From: a virus
DNA length: 64,000 nucleotides
Reading direction: 5' to 3' (one strand)
IMG/VR virus record: IMGVR_UViG_3300018079_000003
Coordinates: 1 to 64,000 of that record
The translations under genes and the position numbers were made by a program. The notes below the pieces were generated by a model. The model did no database searches and was not told the DNA's origin. It saw only the letters and a list, made by a program, of their open reading frames with translations. Below, in pieces: positions 6,801 to 26,277 of the stretch (the first letter of the stretch is position 1; every line of letters begins with the position of its first letter).

Positions 6801-6829
6801 TTGACTGTTTAAACAGTTTATGCGATAGT
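6801..6829 (+). promoter_or_regulatory. Sigma70-type promoter, leaderless configuration
   Basis: TTGACT-N17-GATAGT, with ATG 6835 five nt after the -10. The spacer begins with GTTTAAAC. Confidence 0.55.
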
Positions 6830-6834
6830 GCGGT

Positions 6835-7086
6835 ATGAAAAAGATATCACAATACACTGACAGCGGAGGGGGTAACGGAGTAATTGACTATCCAGTGAAC
6901 GAATACGTGGTGCTGGGAAATCGGCTATTTCGTAAAATTGGAATGCAAAAAGTGCCGGTTCAGTGTCACTGGTTTACTAACAAGGAAGGCTCCTGTTTAA
7001 TGGACCAGTGGGGTTTCACGCATCAGATTGACTATCCGGTGAACGATTTGACAACGTTTAAACCATCTGATAATATAACAATATGA
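6835..7086 (+). CDS. Early hypothetical protein (cassette A)
   Basis: 83-aa ORF with an internal IDYPVN repeat. Its N-terminus MKKISQYTD is shared with 8364..8525. ATGA overlap with the next gene. Confidence 0.5.
   Translation: MKKISQYTDSGGGNGVIDYPVNEYVVLGNRLFRKIGMQKVPVQCHWFTNKEGSCLMDQWGFTHQIDYPVNDLTTFKPSDNITI
7048..7076 (+). promoter_or_regulatory. Sigma70-type promoter, leaderless configuration
   Basis: TTGACA-N17-TAATAT, with ATG 7083 six nt after the -10. It is embedded in the 3' end of the preceding ORF. Confidence 0.65.
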
Positions 7087-7361
7087 CATACAACCAAGCT
7101 GAAAAACTCGGAAACCGCCAAGATTTTATTCGCGAGTATGCTGCCGCCATGAAGGCGGATTGCGACTCGGGCAAGCACGCCTACATTATCCCGGCAGATG
7201 GATGGGAAGGGCTTGCGGCCCGGATGGTAGCGTCGATTCTTGTTGGACGGGCGCACGTTTCGGACGTTGCGAAGAAAATCGCCAAGAAGTTTGGGGCTAG
7301 GCCAACCGTGGCCGGGGTCACCGAATTGCTAAAGGGCCTGCCGGAAGCGGGCGGGCGGTAA
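7083..7361 (+). CDS. Early hypothetical protein (cassette B)
   Basis: 92 aa. N-terminus MTYNQAEKLGN is shared with 7693..8037. Confidence 0.55.
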   Translation: MTYNQAEKLGNRQDFIREYAAAMKADCDSGKHAYIIPADGWEGLAARMVASILVGRAHVSDVAKKIAKKFGARPTVAGVTELLKGLPEAGGR

Positions 7362-7407
7362 AATAAATTTGACAACCCAATCAAAAAAAATCTACTGAAA
7401 GGATCAA

Positions 7408-7650
7408 ATGAAAATCGAAATTACAGGCGCGATGGTGAATATCCACAAAGAGGAATCGGACAAACGGTTCAAAAACGATTCGCAGTTCTTTTATGCGTTG
7501 CGTAACGCACTTCGGGCGCAAGGCCGCGATGAGCGGAGCGCGGGCCTGTATTGCATGCATGACCGCAATAGGAATGGGTCTGTAAATTTTCGATGTGGTC
7601 GCGCATACAATAAGGATGGGTCTGTAAATTTTCGATTGGAACGGCAATAA
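7408..7650 (+). CDS. Early hypothetical protein (cassette C)
   Basis: 80 aa. Paralog of 8068..8367 (MKIEITGAMV..KEESDKRF..DSQFFYALRNALRAQGRD). AAAGGA SD-like sequence 5 nt upstream. Confidence 0.6.
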   Translation: MKIEITGAMVNIHKEESDKRFKNDSQFFYALRNALRAQGRDERSAGLYCMHDRNRNGSVNFRCGRAYNKDGSVNFRLERQ

Positions 7651-7657
7651 TAAAAAT

Positions 7658-7686
7658 TTGACAACGTTTAAACAATCTGATACTAT
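7658..7686 (+). promoter_or_regulatory. Sigma70-type promoter, leaderless configuration
   Basis: TTGACA-N17-TACTAT, with ATG 7693 six nt after the -10. Near-duplicate of 7048..7076. Confidence 0.65.
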
Positions 7687-7692
7687 AACAAT

Positions 7693-8037
7693 ATGACATA
7701 CAACCAAGCAATCGAAAAACTCGGAAACCGTGAGCAGAAAAAGATCGCTAACAATACCTACCTTTGCCGAAGGCAGGATGGGGCAGTGGCGGTCCGGCTG
7801 CATGCGACAGACATCCTGACCTTCCGGCCTGATGGTAGTGTGGTTCTTACCACTGGCGGCTGGCGTTCGGTGACCACCAAGGCGCGCTTGAACGCCTACT
7901 GCCCCATCGGGCGCGGGATTGGCCAACGGGCCGGCGTGTGGTATCACGGCTCAACTAAGGTTGAAATGATGGAAGGCGACCGCATCAATGAAGCCACGGG
8001 CGCAGTTTGGCGCACGGACGGCACCGTGGTGCTTTAA
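7693..8037 (+). CDS. Early hypothetical protein (cassette B')
   Basis: 114 aa. Shares promoter and N-terminus with 7083..7361, then diverges. Confidence 0.55.
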   Translation: MTYNQAIEKLGNREQKKIANNTYLCRRQDGAVAVRLHATDILTFRPDGSVVLTTGGWRSVTTKARLNAYCPIGRGIGQRAGVWYHGSTKVEMMEGDRINEATGAVWRTDGTVVL

Positions 8038-8067
8038 TTGGCTCGGCCATATTACTGAAAGGATCAA

Positions 8068-8367
8068 ATGAAAATTGAAATTATAGGCGCGAGGGTGATT
8101 GTCCGCAAAGAGGAATCGGACAAACGGTTCCGAAGTGATTCGCAGTTCTTCTATGCGCTGCGCAACGCATTGCGCGCGCAAGGCCGCGACGTGATTAAGA
8201 AGCTGATGGCCAAGGATGGTCACATGGTCAGCGCGGGTGTTTACTACATCCGCGACCGCAAAGGCGCGTATGCAATTCATGACCAAAACTATCAGATTGC
8301 TAGCGCGGCAGAAGACTTTAATAAGGATGGATTCGTAAATCTCAGACTTGAGCGATTGTCGGCATGA
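8068..8367 (+). CDS. Early hypothetical protein (cassette C')
   Basis: 99 aa. Paralog of 7408..7650 with the same ACTGAAAGGATCAA upstream sequence. Confidence 0.6.
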   Translation: MKIEIIGARVIVRKEESDKRFRSDSQFFYALRNALRAQGRDVIKKLMAKDGHMVSAGVYYIRDRKGAYAIHDQNYQIASAAEDFNKDGFVNLRLERLSA

Positions 8368-8525
8368 AAGAATCACAATACACTGATAAATATTTTATTC
8401 GGGACGGCATTCAAATCGCAATGATCGTCGATGAAGTGGCGCGCGATTACGCCCGGTGTTCGGCTTCGGATGCGGTAAAGGCGAGCTATGATGCGGCCCG
8501 GCAATCCGCAAGTGCGGTTCTATAG
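8364..8525 (+). CDS. Small early protein (53 aa, cassette A')
   Basis: Hand-translated and below the ORF-track cutoff. ATGA overlap with 8068..8367. N-terminus MKESQYTD resembles that of 6835..7086. Confidence 0.4.
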   Translation: MKESQYTDKYFIRDGIQIAMIVDEVARDYARCSASDAVKASYDAARQSASAVL

Positions 8526-8552
8526 TCCGACTTGTCCCAACCCCCGAAACTT

Positions 8553-8580
8553 AGCCCGGCCTGAGAAGCCGGGCTTTTTG
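8553..8580 (+). terminator. Rho-independent terminator
   Basis: AGCCCGGC-ctgagaa-GCCGGGCT followed by TTTTT, at the convergence with the minus-strand genes. Confidence 0.7.
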
Positions 8581-8619
8581 CTGTCCGTAAAATTCATCGT
8601 GTGGTCAACTTCCCAAAAC

Positions 8620-9288
8620 TTAGTGGTCATCATTATCATGAGGATTATCAACCGGCTCGGGGTTCGATTTCTTCGCGGAATCAATAATTGCCTGCCCTAC
8701 CTGAAGCTGGGCATCAAAAAGTTGTGCTCGCGGCGTGTTGCTCGCCCCGGCCTTGCGCATCGCCTCGGCAATCTTAACATGCATTTCGCCTGCCGCAATA
8801 GTTCCCTCTGCCCCTTCGTTGCGTTTTGCCCGGTCTTGGGCCGTGTCGGATAAAGCTAAATAACTTAAAGCATGGGCTTTCTCAATTGCGCTCGCCAAGT
8901 CGGCTAATGCCCTTGTAACTAATTTAGGATATATCACGCCGTTCTTATCAGGATGAAAAAACAAATAGTCATCCACCTCTTTTGGTGTAAGGGCCATGAG
9001 TTTTGAAACAACTTTCTCGACAAACATACGAAAGCGATGCGCTTGGACAAAGTTCATCGCCCGATTTATACTGCGCTCAATATCACCGGGCTTACTGGAT
9101 TTTTTCAATTCAAGGATGCCCTTAAGCTTATCGTTCCATGAATCTTCATCCGCGATACGCAGCACGTCCAGAGCGCGCACGCCTAGCGCATGGGCGGTGC
9201 GTTCGAGGTCGCCCGTAAACGCCGCATAAAGCAAAAATGCGTTCTCGCGATCCACTGGCAATTCTTCATTCATTGCGCTTCGCTCCAT
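8620..9288 (-). CDS. HTH DNA-binding protein, possibly small terminase-like
   Basis: The N-terminal segment AFLLYAAFTGDLERTAHALGVRALDVL looks like the HTH found in small terminases. The rest is helical with an acidic tail. This is an impression only. Confidence 0.3.
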   Translation of the reverse strand: MERSAMNEELPVDRENAFLLYAAFTGDLERTAHALGVRALDVLRIADEDSWNDKLKGILELKKSSKPGDIERSINRAMNFVQAHRFRMFVEKVVSKLMALTPKEVDDYLFFHPDKNGVIYPKLVTRALADLASAIEKAHALSYLALSDTAQDRAKRNEGAEGTIAAGEMHVKIAEAMRKAGASNTPRAQLFDAQLQVGQAIIDSAKKSNPEPVDNPHDNDDH

Positions 9289-9532
9289 TTTTGGCCCACC
9301 AGTCCGCGCGCTTTTTGTACCGCATATTTGCCCGCGCTTTGCGCTCCAACTCCCGAACCTCGGGCCGCATATTCTCGAAAAGTTTATCTGCCGGAATTTT
9401 CTTCACACGAAACAGTGCATCCATCAGGGCGAATCGGCGATCCGAAAATAGACGGCATGGCGGTTCGGCGCATCGAAAATCATCACGAAAAATAGCCCAG
9501 CGCAGCGCCCAATAATAAGCACATATAGACAT
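9266..9532 (-). CDS. Hypothetical basic protein
   Basis: 88-aa ORF overlapping the start of 8620..9288. An alternative start is Met37 (9424). Confidence 0.35.
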   Translation of the reverse strand: MSICAYYWALRWAIFRDDFRCAEPPCRLFSDRRFALMDALFRVKKIPADKLFENMRPEVRELERKARANMRYKKRADWWAKNGAKRNE

Positions 9533-9800
9533 TAAAGTGGTCTTTCCGGTCCTGTAATCCTTTTCTTACAAGAAAAATAATAAATATGGGGTGGGGAAAA
9601 ACACGGCCCCTAGAGGTGGAAACCTCGAAATGTGGTGGATGTAGACGTTAGCCAGCAATTTGTAATATCCCATCGCTGTAAGTGGCTCGGCGACAAGGCG
9701 ATCCAACGAAAAATCGTAAAACGGAAAGTCTTGCCGGTGGGCAATATATACCCGTATACAGGAATGTGAAAATACTTGTGGCGCTTTTGTCTAACCGGCT

Positions 9801-9812
9801 CCACTGTTTCTT
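9801..9812 (+). promoter_or_regulatory. CCACTGTTTCTT motif copy (candidate phage-specific promoter)
   Basis: Exact 12-mer. ATG 9817 follows CACTGT by 9 nt, as in the copy at 5576. Confidence 0.45.
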
Positions 9813-9816
9813 TGAT

Positions 9817-10029
9817 ATGGCGAACCGGCGAAAAGTCAAATCCGGCGGCACGGCGGCACGGCGAAAAGTCGGCTATTTTGCGGACCAGAAACAAATCCAC
9901 CCGTGCGCGTGCAAAAGTTACAACGGCGGCGGACAATGCTACAATTGTTTAAATGGCGCTCATAGGTTATGTCCCGGTTGTAAACGCCCTAACGCCAAGC
10001 ACCTCGGGCTTAGAATTGTTGCGACTTGA
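9817..10029 (+). CDS. Small Cys-rich early protein (70 aa)
   Basis: Internal ATG of track ORF 9682..10029, chosen for its position after the motif. Contains CACKS..GGGQCYNCLNGAHRLCPGC and ends RIVAT*. Confidence 0.4.
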   Translation: MANRRKVKSGGTAARRKVGYFADQKQIHPCACKSYNGGGQCYNCLNGAHRLCPGCKRPNAKHLGLRIVAT

Positions 10030-10044
10030 CAACCGTGATATAAT
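10016..10044 (+). promoter_or_regulatory. Extended -10 promoter, leaderless configuration
   Basis: TTGTTG-N17-TATAAT with an upstream TG (TGaTATAAT). ATG 10052 lies 7 nt after the -10. Confidence 0.65.
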
Positions 10045-10051
10045 GATCCCA

Positions 10052-10228
10052 ATGAAAATTAAAATACTTACAAAAGACAGATCGGGATACGAAGTAGACC
10101 TTGCCACCGGCAGTCGGTGTTTTCGTATCGTTTCCGCCACGACTCACGGTGCCTTCTGCGTGCCCCAAGATTATGCAGGACCGTGGGAGGGTGAATGGTT
10201 TTGCACCGCTCGAATTGTTGCGACTTGA
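10052..10228 (+). CDS. Small early protein (58 aa)
   Basis: MKIKILTKDRSGYEVD..., ending RIVAT*. In frame with track ORF 9953..10228. Confidence 0.45.
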   Translation: MKIKILTKDRSGYEVDLATGSRCFRIVSATTHGAFCVPQDYAGPWEGEWFCTARIVAT

Positions 10229-10243
10229 CAGCCATGGTATAAT
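10215..10243 (+). promoter_or_regulatory. Extended -10 promoter, leaderless configuration
   Basis: TTGTTG-N17-TATAAT with TGgTATAAT. ATG 10251 lies 7 nt after the -10. Duplicate of 10016..10044. Confidence 0.65.
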
Positions 10244-10250
10244 GGTTGTA

Positions 10251-10445
10251 ATGAAAATTGAAAAAGAGTATGATCGTCACTCCTACGAAGTTCAACAACA
10301 GGGTGAAAACGGGAAGTGGTATCGGCTGGTGTCCAGCGACCGAATTGAAAACGGGAACGATAAAGAAATGGTTCAGATCGCTCTCGAAAATGCCGCCAAG
10401 CAAATCAGTTGGGCGCGGGCGATGAAAACTTTGAAAAAATCATAA
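10251..10445 (+). CDS. Small early protein (64 aa)
   Basis: MKIEKEYDRHSYEVQ..., with an N-terminus similar to 10052..10228. Confidence 0.45.
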   Translation: MKIEKEYDRHSYEVQQQGENGKWYRLVSSDRIENGNDKEMVQIALENAAKQISWARAMKTLKKS

Positions 10446-10648
10446 TGAGCCAAAACATAAAAGAAGTTCTCGATTGTTATCTCGCCGCTCGTAAAAATCT
10501 TTTAGATTTAGTGGAGGCATTGCCGGCATACGTATCTGAAAAAAACTGCCCGCTTCGCTCGGATCATTGGGCACTTTCGAATCAGCTTTTTGGAGTGGGG
10601 AGCTATGGTTGGGCATGTAAATTTTGCGGAGAGACCCACGACACATGA
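10445..10648 (+). CDS. Small hypothetical protein
   Basis: MSQNIKEVLD..., with a TAATG overlap upstream and an ATGA overlap downstream. Confidence 0.45.
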   Translation: MSQNIKEVLDCYLAARKNLLDLVEALPAYVSEKNCPLRSDHWALSNQLFGVGSYGWACKFCGETHDT

Positions 10649-11751
10649 GCAGAATTGCAAAAGACCCGGCCCTATCCGCCCTCGCGGTGGAACTAAAGAC
10701 TACCAAATTTAGCGACGCCCCGGACCTTGAAGAAGTCATCCGCGAGCGATTTGTGGAACTAGCTCGTGGGCATGGCGAATATCCTTTTCGTCTGGTTTAT
10801 CAGATGCCCGATTTCAAAACGTGGGTGGTTCGGCTATACCTTGGCGGCGCAGTCCGCACCATCGGCTTTTCTGCTCGTTTAACTGATGCATGCCGATACG
10901 CCGACATGGCTGCGCTTCGGTTCTGGAAATACCGGGTGCGGGGAGCGTCCGAGCCGGTGGATGCCAATCTCAATTTCGACGTGGCTCAGGCAAAATATGA
11001 CAGCACGGAGGAAATTGAGGCCGCATATTTATTAGACCGAATTGAAAATTACTTACTGTCATCCGGCGCGCTCGGCGACCCCAAACAATCTGAAATTGAC
11101 CGGCAGCGCAACCGAAAAGCGCGCGATGCTCGCAGGACCGTGCGCCATGACCTGCACGCGCTGATCGACGGGTTGAATGAAAAACTAGACTTGATCGACG
11201 CGCGGCTAAAACATATCGAGGATGGGGTTTGTAAAAAGCAAATAAATCCTGAGTGGGTTAGGTCTGAGTGGGATGTTTGTTTTGAGCCTCGCGGAAGGGA
11301 TTTTAAACACGAGCCAAATCCGGCGTGGCGCGATCCCCTGCCGGGTGAGGTTACGGGCGCAGTTTTTTCGCCTGCGGGGGAAATAAGATTAGTGCCCTTC
11401 AATGTGTGGGTGATTCCTGACCACTATATTACTCTTCATGTGCCCGCGCGGATTGTGAATGGTTTGGAAATTCTAACCCCGGAAGCGCATGAGATGATCT
11501 GGAAATACCGGGTGCGGGGAGCGTCCGAGCCGGTGGATGCCAATCTCAATTTCGACGTGGCTCAGGCAAAATATGACAGCACGGAGGAAATTGACCGCGC
11601 TCGTAAAGATGAGCGCGCAATGGAAGGCGAAATTCGCGGCGTGCAATCCGGTCCCGTGCCCGAAGAAGTAAAAGTAGTCGCGCAAGACGTAATTACTACG
11701 TTGGAAAATCTTTTTTCGTCATCGCCTATTGATAACTCGCCGAAATCATGA
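10645..11751 (+). CDS. AP2-like DNA-binding protein carrying an internal 97-bp duplication
   Basis: WVVRLYLGG..IGFS....A.RYADMAALRFW......ANLNF resembles an AP2 domain. The C-terminal half of that segment is repeated exactly. Start placed at the ATGA overlap. Confidence 0.45.
   Translation: MSRIAKDPALSALAVELKTTKFSDAPDLEEVIRERFVELARGHGEYPFRLVYQMPDFKTWVVRLYLGGAVRTIGFSARLTDACRYADMAALRFWKYRVRGASEPVDANLNFDVAQAKYDSTEEIEAAYLLDRIENYLLSSGALGDPKQSEIDRQRNRKARDARRTVRHDLHALIDGLNEKLDLIDARLKHIEDGVCKKQINPEWVRSEWDVCFEPRGRDFKHEPNPAWRDPLPGEVTGAVFSPAGEIRLVPFNVWVIPDHYITLHVPARIVNGLEILTPEAHEMIWKYRVRGASEPVDANLNFDVAQAKYDSTEEIDRARKDERAMEGEIRGVQSGPVPEEVKVVAQDVITTLENLFSSSPIDNSPKS
10922..11018 (+). repeat. 97-bp perfect direct repeat, copy 1
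   Basis: Identical to 11498..11594 by base-by-base comparison. Confidence 0.9.
11498..11594 (+). repeat. 97-bp perfect direct repeat, copy 2
   Basis: Identical to 10922..11018. The 576-nt offset keeps it in frame. Confidence 0.9.
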
Positions 11752-11757
11752 TTTAAT
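11729..11757 (+). promoter_or_regulatory. Sigma70-type promoter, leaderless configuration
   Basis: TTGATA-N17-TTTAAT, with ATG 11764 six nt after the -10. Confidence 0.5.
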
Positions 11758-11763
11758 ACGTCT

Positions 11764-12654
11764 ATGAGAATTTTAAAGAAACATATTCAAAAACTAAATT
11801 CCATTCTTGATTCGGGCTTGATCAGAGGGTCCGGCAGTAAAGCCAAGCCGGGAAATATCTGCGTTGAGCAGGCGGTTTGTATCGCGCTTGGTTACAAATT
11901 CTCCGACAATCCACCGTGCGTCTCGCGCGCTTTTCGTTCTCTGAAAATGCGGCTGAATGATTGCTCTGGTTGGTCGTCTAATAAAGCGCGGGCCGAAGGA
12001 TTGCGAAAACTCGCTGTCGTGCAAATTGGTTCTCGCGGCGCGTTGGATGATCAGGAATTTACCCGGCGAGTCACCGAAGCTACAATCCAACAAATTATCC
12101 CTCGTGCGCTTCGTAATGCTGCAAAAGTTTGTCCGCGCTATGCTGAACGGCTTGAAGCGGCGGCTGTTCGTTGCATGCAGGAAGGCACGCGGAAGGCGGC
12201 ACTTGCGGCTAAAGAAATCGCCGGTCGCGCCGCCACCACCGCCAACGTTGCCGCCACCACCGCCGCCAACGCCAGCTACGCCGCCACCGCCGCCGCCAAC
12301 GCCGCCGCCACCACTGCCGATGCCGCCCGCTACGCCGTCAACGCCGCCAACGCCGCCGCTGACTGCGCCGCCGACTGCGCCCACGCCGCCAACGCCGCCG
12401 CCGCTGCCGATGCCGCCGCCAGCGCCGCCCACGCCGCCGATGCCGCCACCACTGCCGCCGCCGACTGCGCCCACGCCGCCGATGCCGCCGCCACCACTGC
12501 CGTTGCCGCCCGCTACGCCGCCCACGCCGCCGATGCCGCCGCCAATAAAGCAACGGCGCGCGATGCCGAAATGATTTTTTTCGCCGATATGGTGCTGGCG
12601 ATCCTTGTAGATATGGCAGTGCCCGGCGTGAAATACCTCAAATGGATCAAGTAA
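11764..12654 (+). CDS. Protein with an Ala-rich periodic repeat domain
   Basis: A globular N-terminal ~150 aa, then ~105 aa of xAA-periodic sequence (ARYAAHAADAA, ADCAHAADAA), then a short hydrophobic C-terminus. Confidence 0.55.
   Translation: MRILKKHIQKLNSILDSGLIRGSGSKAKPGNICVEQAVCIALGYKFSDNPPCVSRAFRSLKMRLNDCSGWSSNKARAEGLRKLAVVQIGSRGALDDQEFTRRVTEATIQQIIPRALRNAAKVCPRYAERLEAAAVRCMQEGTRKAALAAKEIAGRAATTANVAATTAANASYAATAAANAAATTADAARYAVNAANAAADCAADCAHAANAAAAADAAASAAHAADAATTAAADCAHAADAAATTAVAARYAAHAADAAANKATARDAEMIFFADMVLAILVDMAVPGVKYLKWIK
12228..12546 (+). repeat. GCC-rich low-complexity coding repeat
   Basis: Degenerate GCCGCC(A/G)(C/A)C units. The region is open in several frames on both strands. 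Confidence 0.85.
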
Positions 12655-12752
12655 TAAATTTTTGGTGCATAGCTTAATTAGAGCGACGGCAGAAATCGTA
12701 TGGATGCGGGTAAATCCCGCTGCACCAAATTAAACCCCATAAAAGTAAACCT

Positions 12753-13073
12753 ATGATCAAAGAACACATCCCGCAACCTCTCACCATCGACGTGGCCCGC
12801 AAGCTGGCCGGTGCGCTGGCGAGAGTCAACGAACTGGGTGCGACGGCGATTCAAACGCCGACAATTGAAGCGGAACTGCGCGGGCAATCCGAATTCATTG
12901 CGAACACTCTGCGCGACCACGCGGACGAATTTGTTTCGTGTTGGTTCACCATCCAACAGGAATACGGGCCGCTGGTCCGCGCCGCCGCCACGCTGTTCCG
13001 CCGCGCGGCGGACGTGAACAACCAAGCCCGGCAATTGGAACAGGCACACGCTGCTGCTGGCAAGACGGAGTAA
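12753..13073 (+). CDS. Hypothetical protein
   Basis: 106-aa ORF. No motif recognised. Confidence 0.5.
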   Translation: MIKEHIPQPLTIDVARKLAGALARVNELGATAIQTPTIEAELRGQSEFIANTLRDHADEFVSCWFTIQQEYGPLVRAAATLFRRAADVNNQARQLEQAHAAAGKTE

Positions 13074-13093
13074 AAGTTTCCGTGCCACAGAGT

Positions 13094-13180
13094 ATGTTTG
13101 AAACAATAATAACCGCCGCTGCGGTTGTGTGGGTGCTCACCCTTGTGGCGCTCCACCTCGCGGGTCCACCAAAAGTATGA
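13094..13180 (+). CDS. Micro membrane peptide (28 aa)
   Basis: MFETIITAAAVVWVLTLVALHLAGPPKV. Internal ATG of a track ORF, with an ATGA overlap to the next peptide. Confidence 0.3.
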   Translation: MFETIITAAAVVWVLTLVALHLAGPPKV

Positions 13181-13269
13181 AGTTTTATACTAAGACTACT
13201 ACCGTATTGATTTGGCTCGCGCTCGCTTATGGCTACGGTGTGCTTATGGGCATTTGGTTTATGTTATGA
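13177..13269 (+). CDS. Micro membrane peptide (30 aa)
   Basis: Hand-translated MKFYTKTTTVLIWLALAYGYGVLMGIWFML, with ATGA overlaps at both ends. Confidence 0.3.
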   Translation: MKFYTKTTTVLIWLALAYGYGVLMGIWFML

Positions 13270-13517
13270 ATACTTGTGAACGTCCGCCTGACGCGGGGCA
13301 CAACGGTCCTTGTGCTGCCGCGCCGATAAATCCCGCCGCCACGCCCGCCGAGGTGTTGGGCAAACGTCAGTGGACCCTCAAGGCCCTGACCGCCGACATA
13401 AAACAATTACGATTTTCATTTTCGTCCGCCGAGCAGAACCAAAACGTCCGGCTGGCGGTCAATCACCTCGAAGACGCGCTTCATCGTTTATCTCTCGCGA
13501 TTGATCAAGTCTTTTGA
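13266..13517 (+). CDS. Hypothetical protein
   Basis: MNTCERPPD..., at the internal ATG of track ORF 13212..13517, coupled by ATGA. Confidence 0.45.
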   Translation: MNTCERPPDAGHNGPCAAAPINPAATPAEVLGKRQWTLKALTADIKQLRFSFSSAEQNQNVRLAVNHLEDALHRLSLAIDQVF

Positions 13518-13756
13518 TCCCGATGATATGCTTTTCTAGTATGATCAAAGCAAAGCAATTCACGATGGAGCGGCTTAAGAGCGAACTGAATCGCCGCGTG
13601 CGCATATGGTCTGGCGAGTGGCTGGCCTACTGGGGGCCGAATGCCGCAGGTTACGTAGAGAAGCCAAAGCAGGCGGGCGAGTGGACGCTGCGTGAGGCGT
13701 ATGAGTTGACTTCTCACTGTGGACCTGAAAAGAAAATTCATTTCGAGCGCGTATGA
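13514..13756 (+). CDS. Hypothetical protein
   Basis: 80-aa ORF. TTGA overlap start, or the ATG at 13523. Confidence 0.45.
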   Translation: MIPMICFSSMIKAKQFTMERLKSELNRRVRIWSGEWLAYWGPNAAGYVEKPKQAGEWTLREAYELTSHCGPEKKIHFERV

Positions 13757-15006: not shown

Positions 15007-15468
15007 ATGATCGAGTGGACGCCAGAAAACTCCGCGCCGCCACCGCCACCGCCACCCGCGAATTTATTTTTCGCGTGGCTGGTTATTCCCTCCATGTGGG
15101 CGATGCAACCGCGCGATCAGGTTGAGGCGCAAGCCATGCGGGATTTTAATGTGCGACTGATGGAGGTCAATCTCGCCCGCTGGAATTTGGAGATTCTTGA
15201 GCGGTGTCAGAAGTGTTTTGGCGCTTTGATTTACCGCGAGCCGGGTTCGATGCTGTCCTGCGGTGCGGCCCAAGTGTGTGACTATTTTTTCGCTCGTGAT
15301 CGTAAAGAATCATTGGTTTATACATGGCTGCCTCGCGAACGGCAATTTCGCATGGTAGATCAGGACTGGGTAGATTTACGTAGGTTTGCATCGGATTCTC
15401 TGTGCTCGGCGTTGGAAGACTTAAAACTCTTCTCTCGTAATGGCGATTCTTTTTACAAAAAGATTTGA
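15007..15468 (+). CDS. Hypothetical protein with a poly-Pro tract
   Basis: MIEWTPENSAPPPPPPPA.... ATGA-coupled start. Its TGA stop lies inside the next TTGACA. Confidence 0.45.
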   Translation: MIEWTPENSAPPPPPPPANLFFAWLVIPSMWAMQPRDQVEAQAMRDFNVRLMEVNLARWNLEILERCQKCFGALIYREPGSMLSCGAAQVCDYFFARDRKESLVYTWLPRERQFRMVDQDWVDLRRFASDSLCSALEDLKLFSRNGDSFYKKI

Positions 15469-15493
15469 CACAGTTTTAAAAATCTGCGATATT
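15465..15493 (+). promoter_or_regulatory. Sigma70-type promoter, leaderless configuration
   Basis: TTGACA-N17-GATATT, with ATG 15500 six nt after the -10. Confidence 0.6.
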
Positions 15494-15499
15494 CTGATT

Positions 15500-15829
15500 A
15501 TGAATTATTCTGACGATACGGCCCGGCTAAACTGGCTGGAAGCCCATGGGGCCGGGCTTAATAGTCCAGGCGGATGGGCGCATGTTTGGGTTACGGGTGA
15601 TTTTGATCGCCCATCACATTATTACGGGGAAACATATCGCAGTGTGATAGACCGCGCAATGGGGTATGGCCCCGGCACGCCCGCCACCCGGCGCGGCAAA
15701 AGGTCGCATGAATTTTCAGTTGGTGTCTGTGTCTCAATGGTCACTCCTGATAAAGGAGCGCGGCAGGTTACGTCATTACCCTGCCGCGCTCCCAAATTTT
15801 ATGGCCTACGTCCATGGATTATTAAATGA
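15500..15829 (+). CDS. Hypothetical protein
   Basis: MNYSDDTARLNWLEAHG.... Internal ATG of track ORF 15440..15829, chosen from the promoter geometry. Confidence 0.45.
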   Translation: MNYSDDTARLNWLEAHGAGLNSPGGWAHVWVTGDFDRPSHYYGETYRSVIDRAMGYGPGTPATRRGKRSHEFSVGVCVSMVTPDKGARQVTSLPCRAPKFYGLRPWIIK

Positions 15830-16922: not shown

Positions 16923-16925
16923 TTT

Positions 16926-19472: not shown

Positions 19473-19545
19473 GCATGCGGTGTGAGAAACAATCACTTAA
19501 ATTCGGGTATCTGTTCTTGAGCCGCATGCTCAATTCCCACAAACT

Positions 19546-20490
19546 ATGAATGAATTACAACCAGCCCCACAGCGCCCAATGACTCTCGCAAAGAACGACT
19601 TGGGCGGGATATTGTCATTGATTAACAACCCGGAATTGGAACTGTTGGGCGGTTTATCGCCGACGATGGAACCGTTGGTGATGGAGGAAGAAAAACCACC
19701 CGTCCGGCGTGAAAGCCCTCCCCCTATCGTCCGTCCCGTTGGCCGTTCGCTGCTATTCTCGGGGCGGCTCGCATCGGGAAAAGATTACGTCGCGGAGAAA
19801 GCGGGGGCAAAAATATTTAGCCTTCCCGATCCGCTCTATGCGGTTGCCAGTCATCTTTTCGGCGTCGAGGTAACTTCCACTAAAAATAAAGATTTGCCCG
19901 GCATGCGCGCTTTTCTCCAATACCTCGGGCAATGGGGCCGCAACGAGGTAAACGACAAATATCCCTACACCCCGGCCCGTGCCGTATTCGTTCAAATGAT
20001 CCGGTCGCTGGGCGTGCATTCCCAATCAAAAGCGTTTTGTCCCTCCGTCGATTGGTCGAGCTTCGGATTCGACAACGAGATTTGGGTCAAGGCTTGTGCC
20101 ACCCGAATAGAAGGCGTGAGAGAGCACGACGCGGCGGTGAAGCGGGTGGCGATACCAAACCTTCGTTTTGAATTTGAATTGAAATATTTTCGTGAGCGGG
20201 GCTTCGACCACTACCACATCATGTGTTCGGCAGAGACGTGGGCGGAACGTTTGGTCAAGAAAAACCTCAAGCCGGAGTCCAAGGAATTGAACGACATTTC
20301 GGAACAGTTGGCGATCCATCTCGACCGGGACGTGGCGAAGAAAACCAAAGCGCAACCCGTGGGCAATAAGTTGAAAGTGATTTGGAACGACCCTCGGCCC
20401 TGCCCCTCCGCCCGGCTCTACACCCTGAATGAATTCTTGCAAGCCGTCGCTATTGATGAGGTGGTCTTACCGGAGGACGACCAGCAATGA
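19546..20490 (+). CDS. Deoxynucleoside monophosphate kinase-like protein with an N-terminal extension
   Basis: SGRLASGKDYVA P-loop variant, PDPLY, LQYLGQWGR, IPNLRFEFE, as in T5/T4-type dNMP kinases. From recollection only. Confidence 0.5.
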   Translation: MNELQPAPQRPMTLAKNDLGGILSLINNPELELLGGLSPTMEPLVMEEEKPPVRRESPPPIVRPVGRSLLFSGRLASGKDYVAEKAGAKIFSLPDPLYAVASHLFGVEVTSTKNKDLPGMRAFLQYLGQWGRNEVNDKYPYTPARAVFVQMIRSLGVHSQSKAFCPSVDWSSFGFDNEIWVKACATRIEGVREHDAAVKRVAIPNLRFEFELKYFRERGFDHYHIMCSAETWAERLVKKNLKPESKELNDISEQLAIHLDRDVAKKTKAQPVGNKLKVIWNDPRPCPSARLYTLNEFLQAVAIDEVVLPEDDQQ

Positions 20491-20536
20491 CCGATAACAT
20501 GGTTTTTTTAATTTGTATTACCGTCGTGGTCGTGGT

Positions 20537-20893
20537 ATGGGTATGGAAAAGCGACTGAAAGTTTTATATGTTGCCGGTCCTTTCCGCGCGGCGAATGCGT
20601 GGGAGGTAGAACAGAACATCCGTCGCGCCGAAGCCCTCGCCCTTGAGGCGTGGCGATGCGGCTGCGCGGTGATTTGTCCACATACTAACACCCGATTTTT
20701 TTCCGGCGCGGCCCCGGACCCTGTATGGCTCGACGGCGATTTGGAAATGTTGCGCCGTTGTGATGCGATCCTGATGACGCCGGATTGGAAAAGATCGTCC
20801 GGCGCAACGAAAGAATGGGAACTGGCCCGCGAATTAGATATGGCGGTGCTTTACTCGATAGAAGACTTAAAAGAATGGCTTGAGTATGTTTAA
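20537..20893 (+). CDS. Nucleoside 2-deoxyribosyltransferase-like protein (DUF4406/DUF1937-like)
   Basis: VLYVAGPFRA...E.N...A......G..V.CPH......WL..DL..L..CD....PDW..S.GA..E pattern. Confidence 0.55.
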   Translation: MGMEKRLKVLYVAGPFRAANAWEVEQNIRRAEALALEAWRCGCAVICPHTNTRFFSGAAPDPVWLDGDLEMLRRCDAILMTPDWKRSSGATKEWELARELDMAVLYSIEDLKEWLEYV

Positions 20894-21458
20894 ACGGGGC
20901 ACATTATCGGTCCTGTTTGGCGTCCACCAATTTTTGTGGCATCCGTTTACTGTGTGGCGGGCGTGGCGCTACCTGTATAAGAAAAATCCATCCGCTTACG
21001 AATTGCTCGCAATAATTTTTCACGATACCGGATATGTCGGAAAATCTACGATGGACGGTCCTAATGGACGCACTCATCCAGAGGGCGGGGCAAAGATTGC
21101 GATGTATGCGGCTTACGTATTGGCGCGTCTTCGTGGTAGGAGTTGTGCGGACGCCACCATCATCGGATTGCGGATTTACAAACTAAGTCTATTCCATTCA
21201 ACTCATTACGCCCAACTAAAAGACGCGCCGGTATCGGCGCTGTACCTACCGGACAAGGTCTGTATCCTTTTCGATCCGCCGTGGTTCTATAAGTTGCGCG
21301 CGCGTCTGTCCGGCGAGTTGGCGGAATACGTCAATAATGAAAACCATGCTCGTGGGCAATTCCTGTTTACGGCGGATCAATGGCTAACGCAGTATCGTGA
21401 AAAAATATTGAAGAAGGCTAACGACTATCTCGAAGAACGATGTCGCCCGAAATTTTAA
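20880..21458 (+). CDS. Possible HD-domain phosphohydrolase
   Basis: The only recognisable cues are IFHDTGY and a later HSTHY. Confidence 0.3.
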   Translation: MSMFKRGTLSVLFGVHQFLWHPFTVWRAWRYLYKKNPSAYELLAIIFHDTGYVGKSTMDGPNGRTHPEGGAKIAMYAAYVLARLRGRSCADATIIGLRIYKLSLFHSTHYAQLKDAPVSALYLPDKVCILFDPPWFYKLRARLSGELAEYVNNENHARGQFLFTADQWLTQYREKILKKANDYLEERCRPKF

Positions 21459-23008
21459 ATAGACTCCGCGACCATCAGGTTCAACCGGCGCAACGACTGC
21501 TCGAAATCCTTCAGCACAACCGAACGGCGGCGGATTTTTCGGATACAGGCACCGGCAAGACTTACGTGGCGGCGGCGGTGGCAAAGTCGCTCGCCCTGCC
21601 TACGCTGGTCGTGGTCCCCAAGATTGCGATTAACCAATGGCACCGGGCCGCAGAACATTTCGACGACTCCATAAGTGTAATTAATTATGATATGTTACGC
21701 ACGGGACGGACTCCCTACGGCAGGTGGGATAACAATCCGCCGCCCGGCTTTATTCACGAAGAACGCTATGTTTGCCAGTGCTGCCAGCAAAAAGTGGACC
21801 TTGAAAATTATTCTCCCTGCTATACGCACCCACAAGGCGTGCATTGCTTGGTGATAAAAAAGACTCCGTGGAAGTATGGTAAATTCCATTTTCACCCCGG
21901 TGTGAGTCTTATAGTTTTCGACGAGGGACACCGTTGCGGCTCGCTCGATAGCCTCAACGCCGGTCTTATGATCGCGGCCCGGCGCGACGTGCCAAAGGGG
22001 CTGGTGCTGACCGCCACGGCGGCGTGCAGTCCTCTACAAATGCGCGCGCTGGGGTATTTTTTGGACCTGCATACTTTAAATTATGATGTTCTGGCCCGCC
22101 CGCCGGTCCGTCAAAAGAAAAATTTCTACTCGTGGGTGGCTCGTTATGGGGTTCGACGCGAGCCGATGCGTGGTTTGCAATGGCACGTAGGCGCGGAGCA
22201 ACAGCGGGTAATTATGGCGGAAATTCGGAAAGAAATTATCCCGGCCCGTGGAGTGCGGGTTTGCGTGGACGATATTCCCGGTTTTCCTGAAAGAGAAATT
22301 ATAAGTGAATTATATGACTTCGACGAAGTTGATAAAATTAACGGACTTTACGATGAGATGGCTGATGCACTCAATCGTTTGGAACGGACGCAGGTGGGCG
22401 ATGTATGTCCCGACCACCCACTTACTCGAATACTCCGCGCTCGACAAAAGATTGAACTGCTCAAAGTCCCAATTGGAGTTGAGTTGGCACGAGACTACGT
22501 GGCCAAAGGATATAGTGTCGGGCTGTTCGTCAATTTCCGGCAGACCCTTGACGCACTCCGCGAGCGGCTTGGACTTAAATGCATTATTGACGGCTCCCCG
22601 GCTGGGCAGCGTAATCGGCAATGGAGTATCGACGTTTTCCAATCGGACGTGGAGCGCGTTATTGGGGTAAACAACGAGGCCGGGGGGCTGGCCCTGTCAC
22701 TCCCGGACTTGCATGGAAAACACCCCCGAGTGGGGATAGTTTTCCCCTCGGAAAAGGCCAAGACTATGCGCCAGATATTCGGGCGATTCCATCGGGACGG
22801 CAGCAAGTCCAAGTGTTTTTATCGGGTGATCCTCGCCGCCCGGACATACGAAACATCCCTGCACCGGAACCTCCGCAATAAATTGAACAATCTCGACGCC
22901 TTAAATGACGCGGACCTGATGCCCGATAATCTGGTCTTGACCAAGTCTTCTTTTCCGTCCACTAATTATTTGACAACCCAATCGACTCATGATAGTCTTG
23001 TTTTATGA
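21440..23008 (+). CDS. SNF2/DEAD-like helicase
   Basis: Motif I DTGTGKTY, motif II VFDEGHRC, and a C-terminal helicase-lobe-like region. Confidence 0.75.
   Translation: MSPEILNRLRDHQVQPAQRLLEILQHNRTAADFSDTGTGKTYVAAAVAKSLALPTLVVVPKIAINQWHRAAEHFDDSISVINYDMLRTGRTPYGRWDNNPPPGFIHEERYVCQCCQQKVDLENYSPCYTHPQGVHCLVIKKTPWKYGKFHFHPGVSLIVFDEGHRCGSLDSLNAGLMIAARRDVPKGLVLTATAACSPLQMRALGYFLDLHTLNYDVLARPPVRQKKNFYSWVARYGVRREPMRGLQWHVGAEQQRVIMAEIRKEIIPARGVRVCVDDIPGFPEREIISELYDFDEVDKINGLYDEMADALNRLERTQVGDVCPDHPLTRILRARQKIELLKVPIGVELARDYVAKGYSVGLFVNFRQTLDALRERLGLKCIIDGSPAGQRNRQWSIDVFQSDVERVIGVNNEAGGLALSLPDLHGKHPRVGIVFPSEKAKTMRQIFGRFHRDGSKSKCFYRVILAARTYETSLHRNLRNKLNNLDALNDADLMPDNLVLTKSSFPSTNYLTTQSTHDSLVL
22970..22998 (+). 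promoter_or_regulatory. Sigma70-type promoter, leaderless configuration
   Basis: TTGACA-N17-TAGTCT, with ATG 23005 six nt after the -10. It lies inside the helicase 3' end. Confidence 0.55.
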
Positions 23009-23184
23009 GTAAAGAAATTATTATTTCCACTACTCTTAGTTGCAATCACCGGATGGTGGTTTACTATAAGGTTGGTTCTGACGGTAAGAAAGCCAGCATT
23101 ACGCGGCACGAGCCGATTGATCCGGGCAAGCCGTGTATTAAGCGGTCCTTTAGAGGAATGGACTCTCGAAATTCGTGCCGATGA
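23005..23184 (+). CDS. Small hypothetical protein (59 aa)
   Basis: Hand-translated MSKEIIISTTLSCNHRMVVYYK.... Overlaps the helicase stop and is ATGA-coupled to the nuclease gene. Confidence 0.35.
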   Translation: MSKEIIISTTLSCNHRMVVYYKVGSDGKKASITRHEPIDPGKPCIKRSFRGMDSRNSCR

Positions 23185-24473
23185 TTATGAACCCTCCCTA
23201 CTCACCGTCGTCGGGGGAACGAGTTCATCATTCATATTCCCCGTCGTCGTTGCAATCCACTGAGGCGTGCCCTTGTTACAAAAATCGCGATAGTAAACAC
23301 ATTCGCGGGATCATGGGAACGATTGCGCACAAGGTCACGGAAACCGGCGAGGACGATAACCGACTGGACGATAATGACGCCGCTGCCGCAGCGGAGTGTA
23401 TTGATTTTTACGACAAGCGCCGGGCGATGGCGTTGGCGGCGCGTAATTCAGCAGTTGAAAATCTTGCAAACGAAATTTGGGTGCCGCCTACGGCGGAAGG
23501 ACCGAGAGATGCGCGCGTGCCGTCGATACAACAAGCCGAAGAAAGGATTCCACAAATTATTGAACTTCAAGAAACATATCTCGCGGTAGACGAAATTGAA
23601 TTCCCGGACGGCATTAAATCCACTACAGCGGGTTTCGTGGACCGGGTGCTCATCGCCCATTGCGGCACCTATGCGGAGTTGTTTGATTGGAAATTTGGGC
23701 TATGGCCCGTGGAAAAGGCAGAAGATAATTTGCAGGGGCTGTCCTACGTAATTGGGTTGTTTCGAGAGTATCCCAATCTGAAGTCCGCCCGGTTTTTCTT
23801 TAAGCAGCCTTATACGGGGGAAATTTCCCATTCGTTGTTTACTCGCGAAATGTTGCCGGAGTTATATTTACGAATTCAGGTCGTCGTCGCCAGAGCACGC
23901 ACGGCACGCGCGCTTGCGGCTAAGGGGGATTACTCTATGGCGTCGCCTATGGTGCCGGTCTGTAATTTTTGCGATAACATTGGACGCTGCACGAAGGTTC
24001 TCGACATTGCGTTGAAAGTTGGCAAGAAATTTTACCCGTTGGAAATCCCGGAAGATGTGACGCCTACCGAAGTGCATAGCGCCCGTGATACTACTCTCGG
24101 AATGCGCTTAGCGGGGGTTTTGGCGGTATGGGCGAAGGCATATCGCGGCACGATCACCAACCGGGTAATTTGCGGGAACGCTGACGCGCCTGACGGTTTT
24201 GTTTTAGCGCCCGGATCGACGCCCCGGCAGATTCGAGATGTGACCAAGCTAAAAGAAGTCTCACTTAAATATTTGACACCGGAGGAATATTCGGCGATAT
24301 TACCCCAAGAGCCGCCGTTTGGTGCGCTCGAAGATGCGATTTCGGAAAAAGCGCCGCGCGGGCATAAAAAGGCTACGGTAGAAACTTTTCAATCTCAAAT
24401 TTTAGAGACTGGTGCGGTAGAAAAAGGCACCGCTTACGCTTTCCTAAAGGCAATTCCGTCTAAGGAAAAATAA
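23181..24473 (+). CDS. PD-(D/E)XK nuclease with a Cas4-like Cys cluster
   Basis: N-terminal CPC and C-terminal C-x2-C-x5-C (CNFCDNIGRC), which is the 4Fe-4S pattern of Cas4/AddB. Core motif D..V......ELFDWKFG. Confidence 0.65.
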   Translation: MIMNPPYSPSSGERVHHSYSPSSLQSTEACPCYKNRDSKHIRGIMGTIAHKVTETGEDDNRLDDNDAAAAAECIDFYDKRRAMALAARNSAVENLANEIWVPPTAEGPRDARVPSIQQAEERIPQIIELQETYLAVDEIEFPDGIKSTTAGFVDRVLIAHCGTYAELFDWKFGLWPVEKAEDNLQGLSYVIGLFREYPNLKSARFFFKQPYTGEISHSLFTREMLPELYLRIQVVVARARTARALAAKGDYSMASPMVPVCNFCDNIGRCTKVLDIALKVGKKFYPLEIPEDVTPTEVHSARDTTLGMRLAGVLAVWAKAYRGTITNRVICGNADAPDGFVLAPGSTPRQIRDVTKLKEVSLKYLTPEEYSAILPQEPPFGALEDAISEKAPRGHKKATVETFQSQILETGAVEKGTAYAFLKAIPSKEK

Positions 24474-24493
24474 AAAACTAAAAATACAAAAAT

Positions 24494-25333
24494 ATGGAAA
24501 TCAAATTCGGTCCTCCTTCGGGCGCAAGCCCGGCTCCCGTCACGGAGAAAATCGTGAACCCCACTCCGGTCTCCGGCGTGGAGATTGAATCAGAAACTAC
24601 TTATTGCCCTGCCGTGCCCGGCTCGGCGGCAGTCGCAACGTTGTCGGAACATGGCGATGCGATTCCATCCCTGAAAGAAATCAAACTCCCGCGCATAAAT
24701 ATCGTCCACAACACCGGACGGTTGAAAGATGCGTTTGAGCCGGGAGAGATCGTCTACAATCAAACGACGGTGCTTTTCACGCCTCCCGTCGTCAACAAAT
24801 CAACAGGGAAAGTCGAGCGCGAAGGCACTCCCCCCGTAGATTTGGTTGTTTTGCACTTTTTTCCCACGCGCTTTGTAGAGAAAGTCGTGCCTTACAACAG
24901 TCGTCGCGGATTGATTGTAAACACCGAATCGGATGTCCGGGCGGCGGGCGGCACCGTGAGCTACGACGAGGCAAAGATTAAGCCCAACGTCCCGTTGTTT
25001 GAATATATGGCCGATGCTTTTGTGGCCATTCGCCGTCCTAATCATTGCGCTGATGACGATACGGTTTTCGTCTATGCCGTGGGCAATGATAAATACGCCC
25101 TCGGTCTGTGGAGCATGAAGGGGTCCGCCTATACGGTGGCTAAGACGGCTTTTTTCACTCCCCTGAAAATGGGATGTTTGAAAAAAGGCGGGTATCGGTC
25201 GTATCACTTCGCGGTGAGCACGTTTGAGAAGCCGTTTCAAACCGGCAACAAGACTTGGGTTCCGGTCTGTCTCCCGACTGTTCCCACGGACGCGGCGTTT
25301 CTCGAATTCGCCGCACAAATCCTGAAAGGCTAA
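24494..25333 (+). CDS. Hypothetical protein (a recombination or ssDNA-binding partner is possible from position only)
   Basis: 279-aa ORF directly after the nuclease and followed by a terminator. No motif recognised. Confidence 0.5.
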   Translation: MEIKFGPPSGASPAPVTEKIVNPTPVSGVEIESETTYCPAVPGSAAVATLSEHGDAIPSLKEIKLPRINIVHNTGRLKDAFEPGEIVYNQTTVLFTPPVVNKSTGKVEREGTPPVDLVVLHFFPTRFVEKVVPYNSRRGLIVNTESDVRAAGGTVSYDEAKIKPNVPLFEYMADAFVAIRRPNHCADDDTVFVYAVGNDKYALGLWSMKGSAYTVAKTAFFTPLKMGCLKKGGYRSYHFAVSTFEKPFQTGNKTWVPVCLPTVPTDAAFLEFAAQILKG

Positions 25334-25339
25334 TCGTAA

Positions 25340-25373
25340 GTGGGGAGGACCGCCAACTCCCCACCTTCTTTTT
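25340..25373 (+). terminator. Rho-independent terminator
   Basis: GTGGGGAG-gaccgccaa-CTCCCCAC followed by CTTCTTTTT. Confidence 0.7.
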
Positions 25374-25592
25374 ATGGCAGATCGACAAGCACAAAATTGT
25401 AACTGGGACGTTCGAGACGATGACGGCACAATTACGTGGGAACGTGCGGGTATTGCGGTGCTGATGGATATTCGTCGAGAATTAAAGACGCTTAATCAGA
25501 TTTTGCACTGTCAGAATTTTCTTGCCATCCCGCATAAGCTGGACCGCATTCGGATCAATACCACCCGGCGCAAGCGCCGAAGAAAGATTTGA
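25374..25592 (+). CDS. Small hypothetical protein with a basic tail
   Basis: 72-aa ORF. Its TGA stop lies inside the next TTGACA. Confidence 0.4.
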   Translation: MADRQAQNCNWDVRDDDGTITWERAGIAVLMDIRRELKTLNQILHCQNFLAIPHKLDRIRINTTRRKRRRKI

Positions 25593-25617
25593 CAGTGTTT
25601 AAACTTTGTGCTATACT
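25589..25617 (+). promoter_or_regulatory. Sigma70-type promoter with a very short leader
   Basis: TTGACA-N17-TATACT, with ATG 25627 nine nt after the -10. The spacer contains GTTTAAAC. Confidence 0.6.
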
Positions 25618-25626
25618 CCGGGCACG

Positions 25627-26277
25627 ATGAAAGATAAATCGTTAAAACATGAAACTCGGGAGGGATGGCTGCTCGCAGCGGTCGCTCTCATGCGTCCCTT
25701 GTTCTCGGACAGGGGTTATACCGTCCCGCAAGTGCGGGTGTCCTGCGGCTGGCCTTCCAGTCGCGCGTTGAGTGCTAAAAAGAGGTGCCTCGGAGAGGCG
25801 TGGTCGAAAGATGCGTCGTCTGAAAAGATTGCGAATATTTTCATCACGCCGTGGTTGGAAGAAAAACCCGATGAGGACCAAGGAATTTTGCCCACCCTGA
25901 TCCACGAATTGGGGCATGCGACGGTTGGAAACAAAGAGGGTCATAATAAAGTTTTTGGTAAATGTGTCCGGGCAGTGGGTCTGACCGGCAAGCTTACTTC
26001 GACTCATGCGAGTAAAGAACTGCTCGAACAATGCGTGGCGTGGCACAAGGAATTGGGCGAGTTTCCGCATGGTAAACTCGACTCCAACAAACGTCCGAAG
26101 AAAAAGCAAACCACCCGCTTGATCAAATGCGAGGACAAAGCCAGCGGTTATACCGTCCGCATCACTCGCAAGTGGTTGGAGGAAGGCGGCGCGCCGATTT
26201 GCCCGCTGAATAACAAACCCATGACTTACGAAATCCCGGACGATCTGGATTTCGACGGGGAGGGCGACAATGAATAG
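25627..26277 (+). CDS. SprT-like zinc metallopeptidase domain protein
   Basis: HELGHA zincin motif in an SprT-like context (LIHELGHATVG..GH...F). Confidence 0.65.
   Translation: MKDKSLKHETREGWLLAAVALMRPLFSDRGYTVPQVRVSCGWPSSRALSAKKRCLGEAWSKDASSEKIANIFITPWLEEKPDEDQGILPTLIHELGHATVGNKEGHNKVFGKCVRAVGLTGKLTSTHASKELLEQCVAWHKELGEFPHGKLDSNKRPKKKQTTRLIKCEDKASGYTVRITRKWLEEGGAPICPLNNKPMTYEIPDDLDFDGEGDNE

Follow-up and report, generated by a model that had tools for sequence, protein, structure and literature searches.

Phage transcripts that begin directly at the start codon are already known. The classic case is the PRM-cI mRNA of phage lambda, reportedly the subject of work by Shean and Gottesman in 1992, which is said to be made from a sigma-70 promoter and to start at the A of its AUG. 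It concerns one regulatory gene in a lysogenic circuit, in a genome and a host that otherwise use Shine-Dalgarno (SD) sequences. In the Thermus thermophilus phage phiYS40, the middle and late transcripts are leaderless, according to the account of Sevostyanova et al. 2007 given in PMC3594737. Leaderless transcripts have been predicted from the SigA-like promoters PL1, PR2 and PL2 of Cluster O mycobacteriophages (PMC4351075), and in phiKZ, differential RNA sequencing (dRNA-seq) found no leaderless transcripts (PMC8244752). Among cellular genes, the motif TANNNT located 6-7 bp upstream of open reading frames (ORFs) is the experimentally validated -10 element of leaderless genes in Deinococcus (PMC12340547). 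The DNA examined here, hereafter the window, comprises positions 1-64,000 of the record IMGVR_UViG_3300018079_000003, the bulk of a ~69-kb genome of an uncultured tailed phage. On its + strand, nine promoter-like sites of the housekeeping sigma type end only 5-9 nucleotides (nt) before an ATG. They are read, with a probability of roughly three in four, as functional promoters giving mRNAs with predicted leaders of 0-3 nt.

The mechanism itself would not be new; the case is set apart by the full consensus of -35, TGn and -10 elements, by its predominance across an uncultured family and by a genome nearly without SD sequences. The likeness to phiYS40, a tailed phage as well, is that an entire temporal class of its transcripts begins at the start codon and must be translated without a leader, as described in PMC3594737. 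In that account, however, the leaderless classes are the middle and late ones, whereas here the sites occupy the non-structural, presumed early/middle half and the late region is without them. The Deinococcus-Thermus host of phiYS40 is further described there as using many leaderless genes and as changing its levels of IF2 and IF3 upon infection, and the sites described here, by comparison, are full -35/-10 consensus promoters. The -10 motif beside ORFs in Deinococcus-Thermus, with its equivalent in Actinobacteria, has the same modal spacing to the ORF as in the phage, but it belongs to cellular genes, mostly without a clear -35, and leadered genes there carry GGAG ribosome-binding sites (PMC12340547). 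In the phage, on the contrary, conservation of the -35 and of TGn is strong, and SD sequences are nearly absent from the remaining genome. Cluster O phages have three such promoters per genome in a high-GC actinobacterial system (PMC4351075), in contrast to a predominant arrangement here, where the window has 9-10 sites and 28 of the 68 strong sites across the family conform.

The original prediction, made by eye, had proposed the nine sites as a systematic set. All of the hexamers, the 17-nt spacers and the gaps between the -10 and the ATG (5, 6, 6, 7, 7, 6, 6, 6 and 9 nt) were reproduced from sequence slices. The sites are the following, GTTTAAAC being an 8-bp palindrome.

6801-6837, + strand: promoter TTGACT-17-TGcGATAGT, 5-nt gap, ATG 6835 (83-amino-acid ORF); GTTTAAAC directly after the -35; in-frame stop 6 nt before the ATG; same start given by an external gene caller.
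7048-7085, + strand: promoter TTGACA-17-TGaTAATAT, 6-nt gap, ATG 7083 (92 amino acids); within the 3' end of ORF 6835-7086, with an ATGA overlap; GTTTAAAC in the spacer.
7658-7695, + strand: promoter TTGACA-17-TGaTACTAT, 6-nt gap, ATG 7693 (114 amino acids, Kyano_Gp96-like); near-identical copy of the 7048 unit.
10016-10054, + strand: promoter TTGTTG-17-TGaTATAAT, 7-nt gap, ATG 10052 (58 amino acids, MKIKIL...); stop of the upstream gene (..RIVAT*) in the spacer.
10215-10253, + strand: promoter TTGTTG-17-TGgTATAAT, 7-nt gap, ATG 10251 (64 amino acids, MKIEKEY...); repeat of the 10016 unit.
11729-11766, + strand: weak candidate TTGATA-17-TGaTTTAAT, 6-nt gap, ATG 11764 (296 amino acids); the TGA of the TGn is the stop of the upstream gene.
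15465-15502, + strand: promoter TTGACA-17-TGcGATATT, 6-nt gap, ATG 15500 (109 amino acids); upstream TGA inside the -35; degenerate GTTTTAAAAA in the spacer.
22970-23007, + strand: promoter TTGACA-17-TGaTAGTCT, 6-nt gap, ATG 23005 (59 amino acids); within the 3' end of the helicase gene, with an ATGA overlap.
25589-25629, + strand: promoter TTGACA-17-TGcTATACT, 9-nt gap, ATG 25627 (216 amino acids, weak SprT-like match); upstream TGA inside the -35; GTTTAAAC in the spacer; predicted leader of ~3 nt.

The extended -10 element (TGn, with TG at -15/-14) had been spelled out for only two sites but is present in all nine, and the start codon is ATG in every case. In eight of nine, the second base of the -10 is A and the sixth is T, the exception being 11729. 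Six sites (6801, 7048, 7658, 15465, 22970 and 25589) match the -35 consensus in at least 5 of 6 positions; at 10016 and 10215, TGnTATAAT is perfect and the -35 matches in only 3/6. Nine sites are thus present, but about seven are independent, as 7048/7658 and 10016/10215 are duplications, and one (11729) is weak. The units at 7048 and 7658 are near-identical across the promoter and the first codons, while those at 10016 and 10215 form a direct repeat that also codes for the C-terminal RIVAT of the upstream gene.

The promoters are located in the last codons of the preceding gene or in junctions of 12-34 nt, and stop codons fall inside their -35, TGn or -10. For 15465, 25589, 10016 and 10215, the stop of the upstream gene had been placed inside a TTGACA, and the ORFs indeed end at 15468, 25592, 10029 and 10228, each on the TGA of this hexamer. 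At 10016 and 10215, the stop-bearing TTGACA falls in the spacer, the -35 as read there being TTGTTG.

Counting from the -10 hexamer, sigma-70 RNA polymerase most often initiates at the seventh base and favours a purine there (+1) preceded by a pyrimidine (-1). With a gap of 6 nt, as at five of the nine sites, the A of the ATG therefore falls exactly on the usual transcription start. The base preceding this A is a pyrimidine at six of the nine sites, which fits the start preference.

For a statistical evaluation, a strict site was required to combine a -35 matching in at least 5/6 positions with TGn, a spacer of 17 nt and a -10 whose second base is A and whose sixth is T, on either strand of the window. 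Seven strict sites are present against a mean of 1.2 in dinucleotide shuffles, and in six of these seven, an ORF of 40 codons or more opens with an ATG at a gap of 5-9 nt (binomial P ~3e-9). The composite count, that is, strict sites with an ORF-opening ATG at gap 5-9, is 6, as against 0.08 and never more than 2 over 300 dinucleotide shuffles. The offset profile between TGnTAnnnT and ORF-opening ATGs peaks at gaps 5-7, with eight cases in the window versus ~0.4 per other offset, and the peak is also seen in relatives of the phage. A loose consensus scan is unconvincing (26 sites, 17 expected), and that many loose matches would suit a pattern produced by chance in A+T-rich gene junctions or selected by eye. 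The composite count already refutes this explanation, and so does the independent replication in 28 other genomes described below; its probability is close to nil.

Proteins identical to those of the window were found on metagenomic contigs of 68.6-69.5 kb. The + strand from ~6.8 to 35 kb forms a rightward non-structural block with small unknown genes, an RNA ligase, an ATPase, the helicase, a DUF2800 nuclease-like gene, a family A DNA polymerase and a sigma factor; the - strand from 35.4 to 64 kb forms a leftward block of structural genes, including a 1827-amino-acid tape-measure-like protein. From gene position, the promoters would belong to the early and middle classes. A megablast search of 10 kb against isolate phages gave no match, tblastn with the helicase and the putative terminase matched no cultured phage, and the DNA polymerase is only ~25-30% identical to that of any isolate phage. 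Single-sequence searches with the 296-amino-acid protein (gene 11764) and with the helicase found no relatives, and two loci returned by the RNA ligase (L009 and L010) belong to unrelated phages and were left out of the analysis. IMG/VR searches with the DNA polymerase and the helicase retrieved a family of 60-75-kb contigs.

Twenty-nine loci with a helicase 43-65% identical were scanned. The strict scan gave 63 promoter-like sites, nearly all on the helicase strand, 24 of them with an ORF-opening ATG at gap 5-9. One duplicate was removed on pooling, so that the window and 28 loci together contain 68 strong sites, 59 of which lie on the early (+) strand. An ATG at gap 5-9 follows 28 of the 68, distributed as 6, 12, 5, 1 and 4 cases at gaps of 5, 6, 7, 8 and 9 nt, respectively, versus ~0.3 per other offset. 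The codon at this distance is ATG in 28 cases, GTG in three and TTG in none; 5'-terminal GUG and UUG are poor leaderless start codons. The relatives contain 87 unique combinations of an extended -10 with an ATG at gap 5-9, of which 24% have a -35 with at least 5/6 matches compared to 1.5% at random positions (16-fold), with spacers of 16 (14 cases), 17 (15) or 18 nt (6). These are independent instances, as the genomes differ in both their downstream genes and their promoter sequences. In L004/L108, for example, such promoters precede a 572-amino-acid protein and the DNA polymerase of that genome, and an analogous promoter with a 7-nt gap lies at the helicase 3' end. More distant phages (L120-L170, helicase 32-37% identical) served as a control; their 135 sites show no peak at gaps 5-7, a further argument against chance. 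The expectation that transcripts begin at or near the ATG, although geometric, is supported by a gap with its mode at 6 nt both in the window and, independently, in the 28 relatives, and by its specificity for ATG.

Whether the leaders would be this short depends on the promoter-proximal ATGs being the true starts. In-frame stops 6-12 nt upstream of 6835, 7083, 7693, 11764 and 23005, often within the -10 or TGn, make the ATG the first possible start for five of the nine genes; the next in-frame start in these five is 16-31 codons downstream. The independent gene caller used on public contigs chose the same starts at 6835, 7083, 7693, 11764 and 25627 (216 amino acids), with 11764 taken on one contig and about 11806 on another. 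Orthologs of the 25627 product in six relatives all start 8-10 residues ahead of a conserved TRE(E/G)WL motif. The 59-amino-acid product of 23005 has orthologs in L001, L007 and L002 and is conserved from about residue 1-5 on. The products of 10052 and 10251 are paralogs, and their alignment begins at the MKI coded by these ATGs. The caller took 15440 over 15500 and 10173 over 10251 and left 10052 and 23005 uncalled, and a homolog search gave no sequence to choose between 15500 and the in-frame ATG 15440. Six of the nine sites thereby have support for their start codon. Promoter and homology arguments are what the starts at 10052, 10251, 15500 and 23005 rest on, the first three being less secure.

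The promoters could also be real while translation proceeds from a downstream in-frame codon or from another ORF, in which case the transcripts would have ordinary leaders and the adjoining ATG would be incidental. Downstream starts are formally possible at 16-48 codons, most products are small and without database support, and two of the ATGs were skipped by the external caller. An incidental ATG, however, would not yield a family-wide, ATG-specific spike at gaps 5-7 that is linked to long ORFs, and the N-termini of the 25627 orthologs, of the 23005 product and of the 10052/10251 paralogs coincide with, or lie within a few residues of, the promoter-proximal ATGs. Ordinary leaders are for these reasons very unlikely.

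None of the nine ATGs is preceded by an SD core, taken as GGAG, GAGG or AGGA at -17 to -4. The original prediction had stressed that such transcripts leave no room for an SD sequence, which is true but not distinctive: phage-wide, only 10 of 71 genes have an SD core versus 7 of 71 in a control window, and few are strong (GGGAGGG). Junctions are tight, 37 of the 72 same-strand ones measuring at most 10 nt, with 13 ATGA overlaps. Together, these features suggest a host with SD-independent translation and reinitiation at internal cistrons.

Several observations weigh against leaderless first cistrons. The 11729 promoter is weak, with a -35 of 4/6 and a -10 (TTTAAT) without the near-invariant A at position 2. 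Upstream in-frame alternatives to the ATG exist at 10052, 10251 and 15500. The starts at 7083 and 23005 overlap the upstream stop as ATGA, so that coupling alone could express both genes. At the SprT-like gene (25627), the gap is 12 or 23 nt in two close relatives, and in more distant relatives the gene has no promoter directly upstream. Finally, the phage encodes a region 4 sigma factor that could in principle read the sites.

The promoter of the SprT-like gene is conserved in sequence among relatives with 56-70% identical DNA polymerases, and the gap varies (9 nt in the window and 23, 12, 5 and 7 nt in the nearest relatives), so that a zero-length leader is not under strict constraint. The arrangement, announced as systematic, is predominant across the family but not obligatory.

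The overlaps and the distant orthologs without a promoter of their own would suit genes that owe most of their expression to stop/start coupling, as internal cistrons of long read-through transcripts, with consensus sites that are weak, conditional or vestigial and with leaderless mRNAs as a minor product. The position of the promoters within or abutting the 3' end of the upstream gene and the many short junctions point the same way. Yet near-perfect matches to the -35, the 17-nt spacer, TGn and the -10 are 6-fold over-represented, the sites are confined to the early strand in 59 of 68 cases, and the promoter of the 25627 gene is kept among relatives. This over-representation, strand bias and conservation are not expected of non-functional sites, and predominant coupling is held to be improbable.

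The sigma factor of the phage raises another possibility.

31778-32509, + strand: phage-encoded sigma factor (Sigma70_r4, E = 1.6e-9), at the end of the rightward block.

If this protein, and not the host primary sigma, read the sites, they would form a middle rather than an early class, the leaderless geometry being unchanged. The presence of GTTTAAAC in a subset of the promoters hints at phage-specific control. The motif, on the other hand, is the textbook housekeeping consensus including TGn, and the sigma gene lies downstream of all sites. Moreover, the first genes by the divergent control region (6801 and 7048) carry the motif and presumably must be transcribed before any phage protein is made, which favours the host enzyme. 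Use of the phage sigma at these sites is considered unlikely. A scan of the late region of the window found no consensus TTGACA/TGnTATAAT sites, and the phage sigma factor probably serves the late genes.

Sixteen copies of the palindrome GTTTAAAC are present in the window versus 1.5 expected.

Window: 238, 630, 2752, 6807, 7056, 7666, 16626, 20888, 25597, 28796, 30650, 33433, 49984, 50976, 55059 and 61584.
Relatives: L001 at 269, 8678 and 11412; L002 at 8667 and 11584; L007 at 8877 and 11608.

In four of the nine promoters it directly follows the -35, within the spacer, and relatives have it in the conserved promoter of their SprT-like gene; they also retain it at orthologous codons within the genes for DNA polymerase and RNA ligase. 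The palindrome may be an operator or another protein-binding site. Small candidate DNA-binding proteins of the phage are the product of 7083, with a weak HTH match, and an AP2-domain protein.

In the favoured reading of leaderless first cistrons, the sites would work as housekeeping-sigma-type promoters (-35 TTGACA, 17-bp spacer, extended -10 TGnTAnnnT) heading the transcription units of the rightward non-structural half. With the ATG 5-7 nt after the -10 (9 nt at one site), transcripts would start at the A of the AUG or within ~3 nt of it, probably by means of the host primary sigma factor. The first cistron would be read as a leaderless mRNA, the ribosome, presumably as a 70S particle, and the initiator tRNA binding the 5'-terminal AUG directly. 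Downstream cistrons, also without SD, would probably be reached by termination-reinitiation over tight junctions (ATGA, TAATG or TAA plus 3 nt plus ATG). With a promoter in the last codons of the preceding gene, a gene could open its own transcript and also serve as an internal cistron when transcription reads through from upstream. The proposal may tentatively be extended to a complete logic, undescribed for a phage with canonical -35/extended -10 promoters, in which every unit begins leaderless, internal cistrons are SD-free through stop/start reinitiation and a GTTTAAAC operator switches a subset of units; in this full form it is possible but doubtful.

A tRNA with a CAT anticodon (4763-4835, - strand), the sole match of an Rfam scan, was considered as an initiator aiding leaderless initiation. 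The three consecutive G:C pairs that mark the anticodon stem of bacterial initiator tRNAs are missing from it, which rules it out as a canonical initiator; it is probably an elongator Met or an Ile2 tRNA.

Three further sites of the window resemble the nine in part.

9917-9955, + strand: extra ambiguous candidate GTTACA-17-TGcTACAAT, 7-nt gap, ATG 9953 (91-amino-acid ORF, in frame with 10052); of the same kind as the sites originally listed; inside a Cys-rich ORF ending at 10029.
7369-7410, + strand: TTGACA with a poor -10 (TCTACT, 16-nt spacer), 11 nt before ATG 7408 with an AAGGA motif; TTGACAacccaatc shared with the 22970 promoter.
5881-5909, - strand: strong consensus TTGACA-17-TGgTAATAT, facing left from the divergent control region; the only strong site without a nearby ATG.

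The second of these may be a short-leader promoter. The gene at 7408-7650 has a paralog at 8068-8367 (both + strand, MKIEI(T/I)GA...), each located after ctgaaaggatcaaATG, an SD-like (AAGGA) context that is rare in the genome. Behind the leftward promoter, the next candidate start is 5723, ~150 nt downstream; the stretch in between (5724-5875, - strand) folds only slightly better than shuffles (z = -2.2) and has no Rfam match.

Two other candidates were discarded. The DNA polymerase start at 27201 (TTGTTT-16-TGtTAAATT, 4-nt gap) was not added on account of its weak -35, its short gap and an equivalent in L004 only; other relatives have hairpins at this position instead. TANNNT at gap 0 before late genes, tried as a second leaderless class, is explained by junctions of a TAA stop, 3 nt and ATG. 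The exact 12-mer CCACTGTTTCTT occurs four times, at 9801-9812 (+ strand), 5576-5587, 54348-54381 and 54682-54715 (all - strand). Two copies lie 4 nt before an ATG and two within a 34-nt repeat, TTGACCTTT..CCCACTGTTTCTT, in late-region intergenic space; the 12-mer may represent a second promoter class.

Other features of the genome were noted in passing. Two leftward genes (217-222 and 88 amino acids) lie at 8620-9532 (- strand) inside the otherwise rightward early block, with good coding scores and no family matches. An AP2-domain gene (26728-27204, + strand) immediately precedes the DNA polymerase gene, which it overlaps as ATGA, and has five paralogs dispersed in the relative L005 (1627, 5015, 11962, 15826 and 18158), which suggests a mobile homing-endonuclease-like element. 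The 296-amino-acid product of gene 11764-12654 (+ strand) is Ala-rich and repetitive in its C-terminal half. The differences from two near-identical metagenomic copies fall essentially all within ~270 bp (12280-12545, + strand), either a hypervariable region or an assembly-unstable repeat. In the near-identical genomes L172 and L173, zero variants occur in any promoter, so that this microdiversity offers no selection test.

The phage's genes do not settle its host. The epimerase is 45-53% identical to those of many phyla, Patescibacteria being marginally on top, which is not decisive. Homologs of the Kyano_Gp96-like gene are present in cyanophages, Caulobacter phages and Burkholderia phages and give no host assignment.

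The promoter-ATG combination provides a sequence signature to annotate transcription units in a widespread uncultured phage family of ~60-75 kb. It can also correct gene starts set by automatic callers, as at 10052, 10251, 15500 and 23005. The ~35 natural promoter/5'-AUG pairs, with discriminators of 5-9 nt (12 and 23 nt in orthologs), are usable for studies of start-site selection and leaderless initiation. The arrangement points to a host that makes little use of SD pairing. If the complete expression logic is true, it implies a host clade that pairs an Escherichia coli-like promoter consensus with largely SD-independent translation, and hosts might then be assigned by means of the promoter-ATG signature. 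If the predicted starts are confirmed, this family would be among the clearest phage lineages that routinely use leaderless first cistrons from full consensus promoters.

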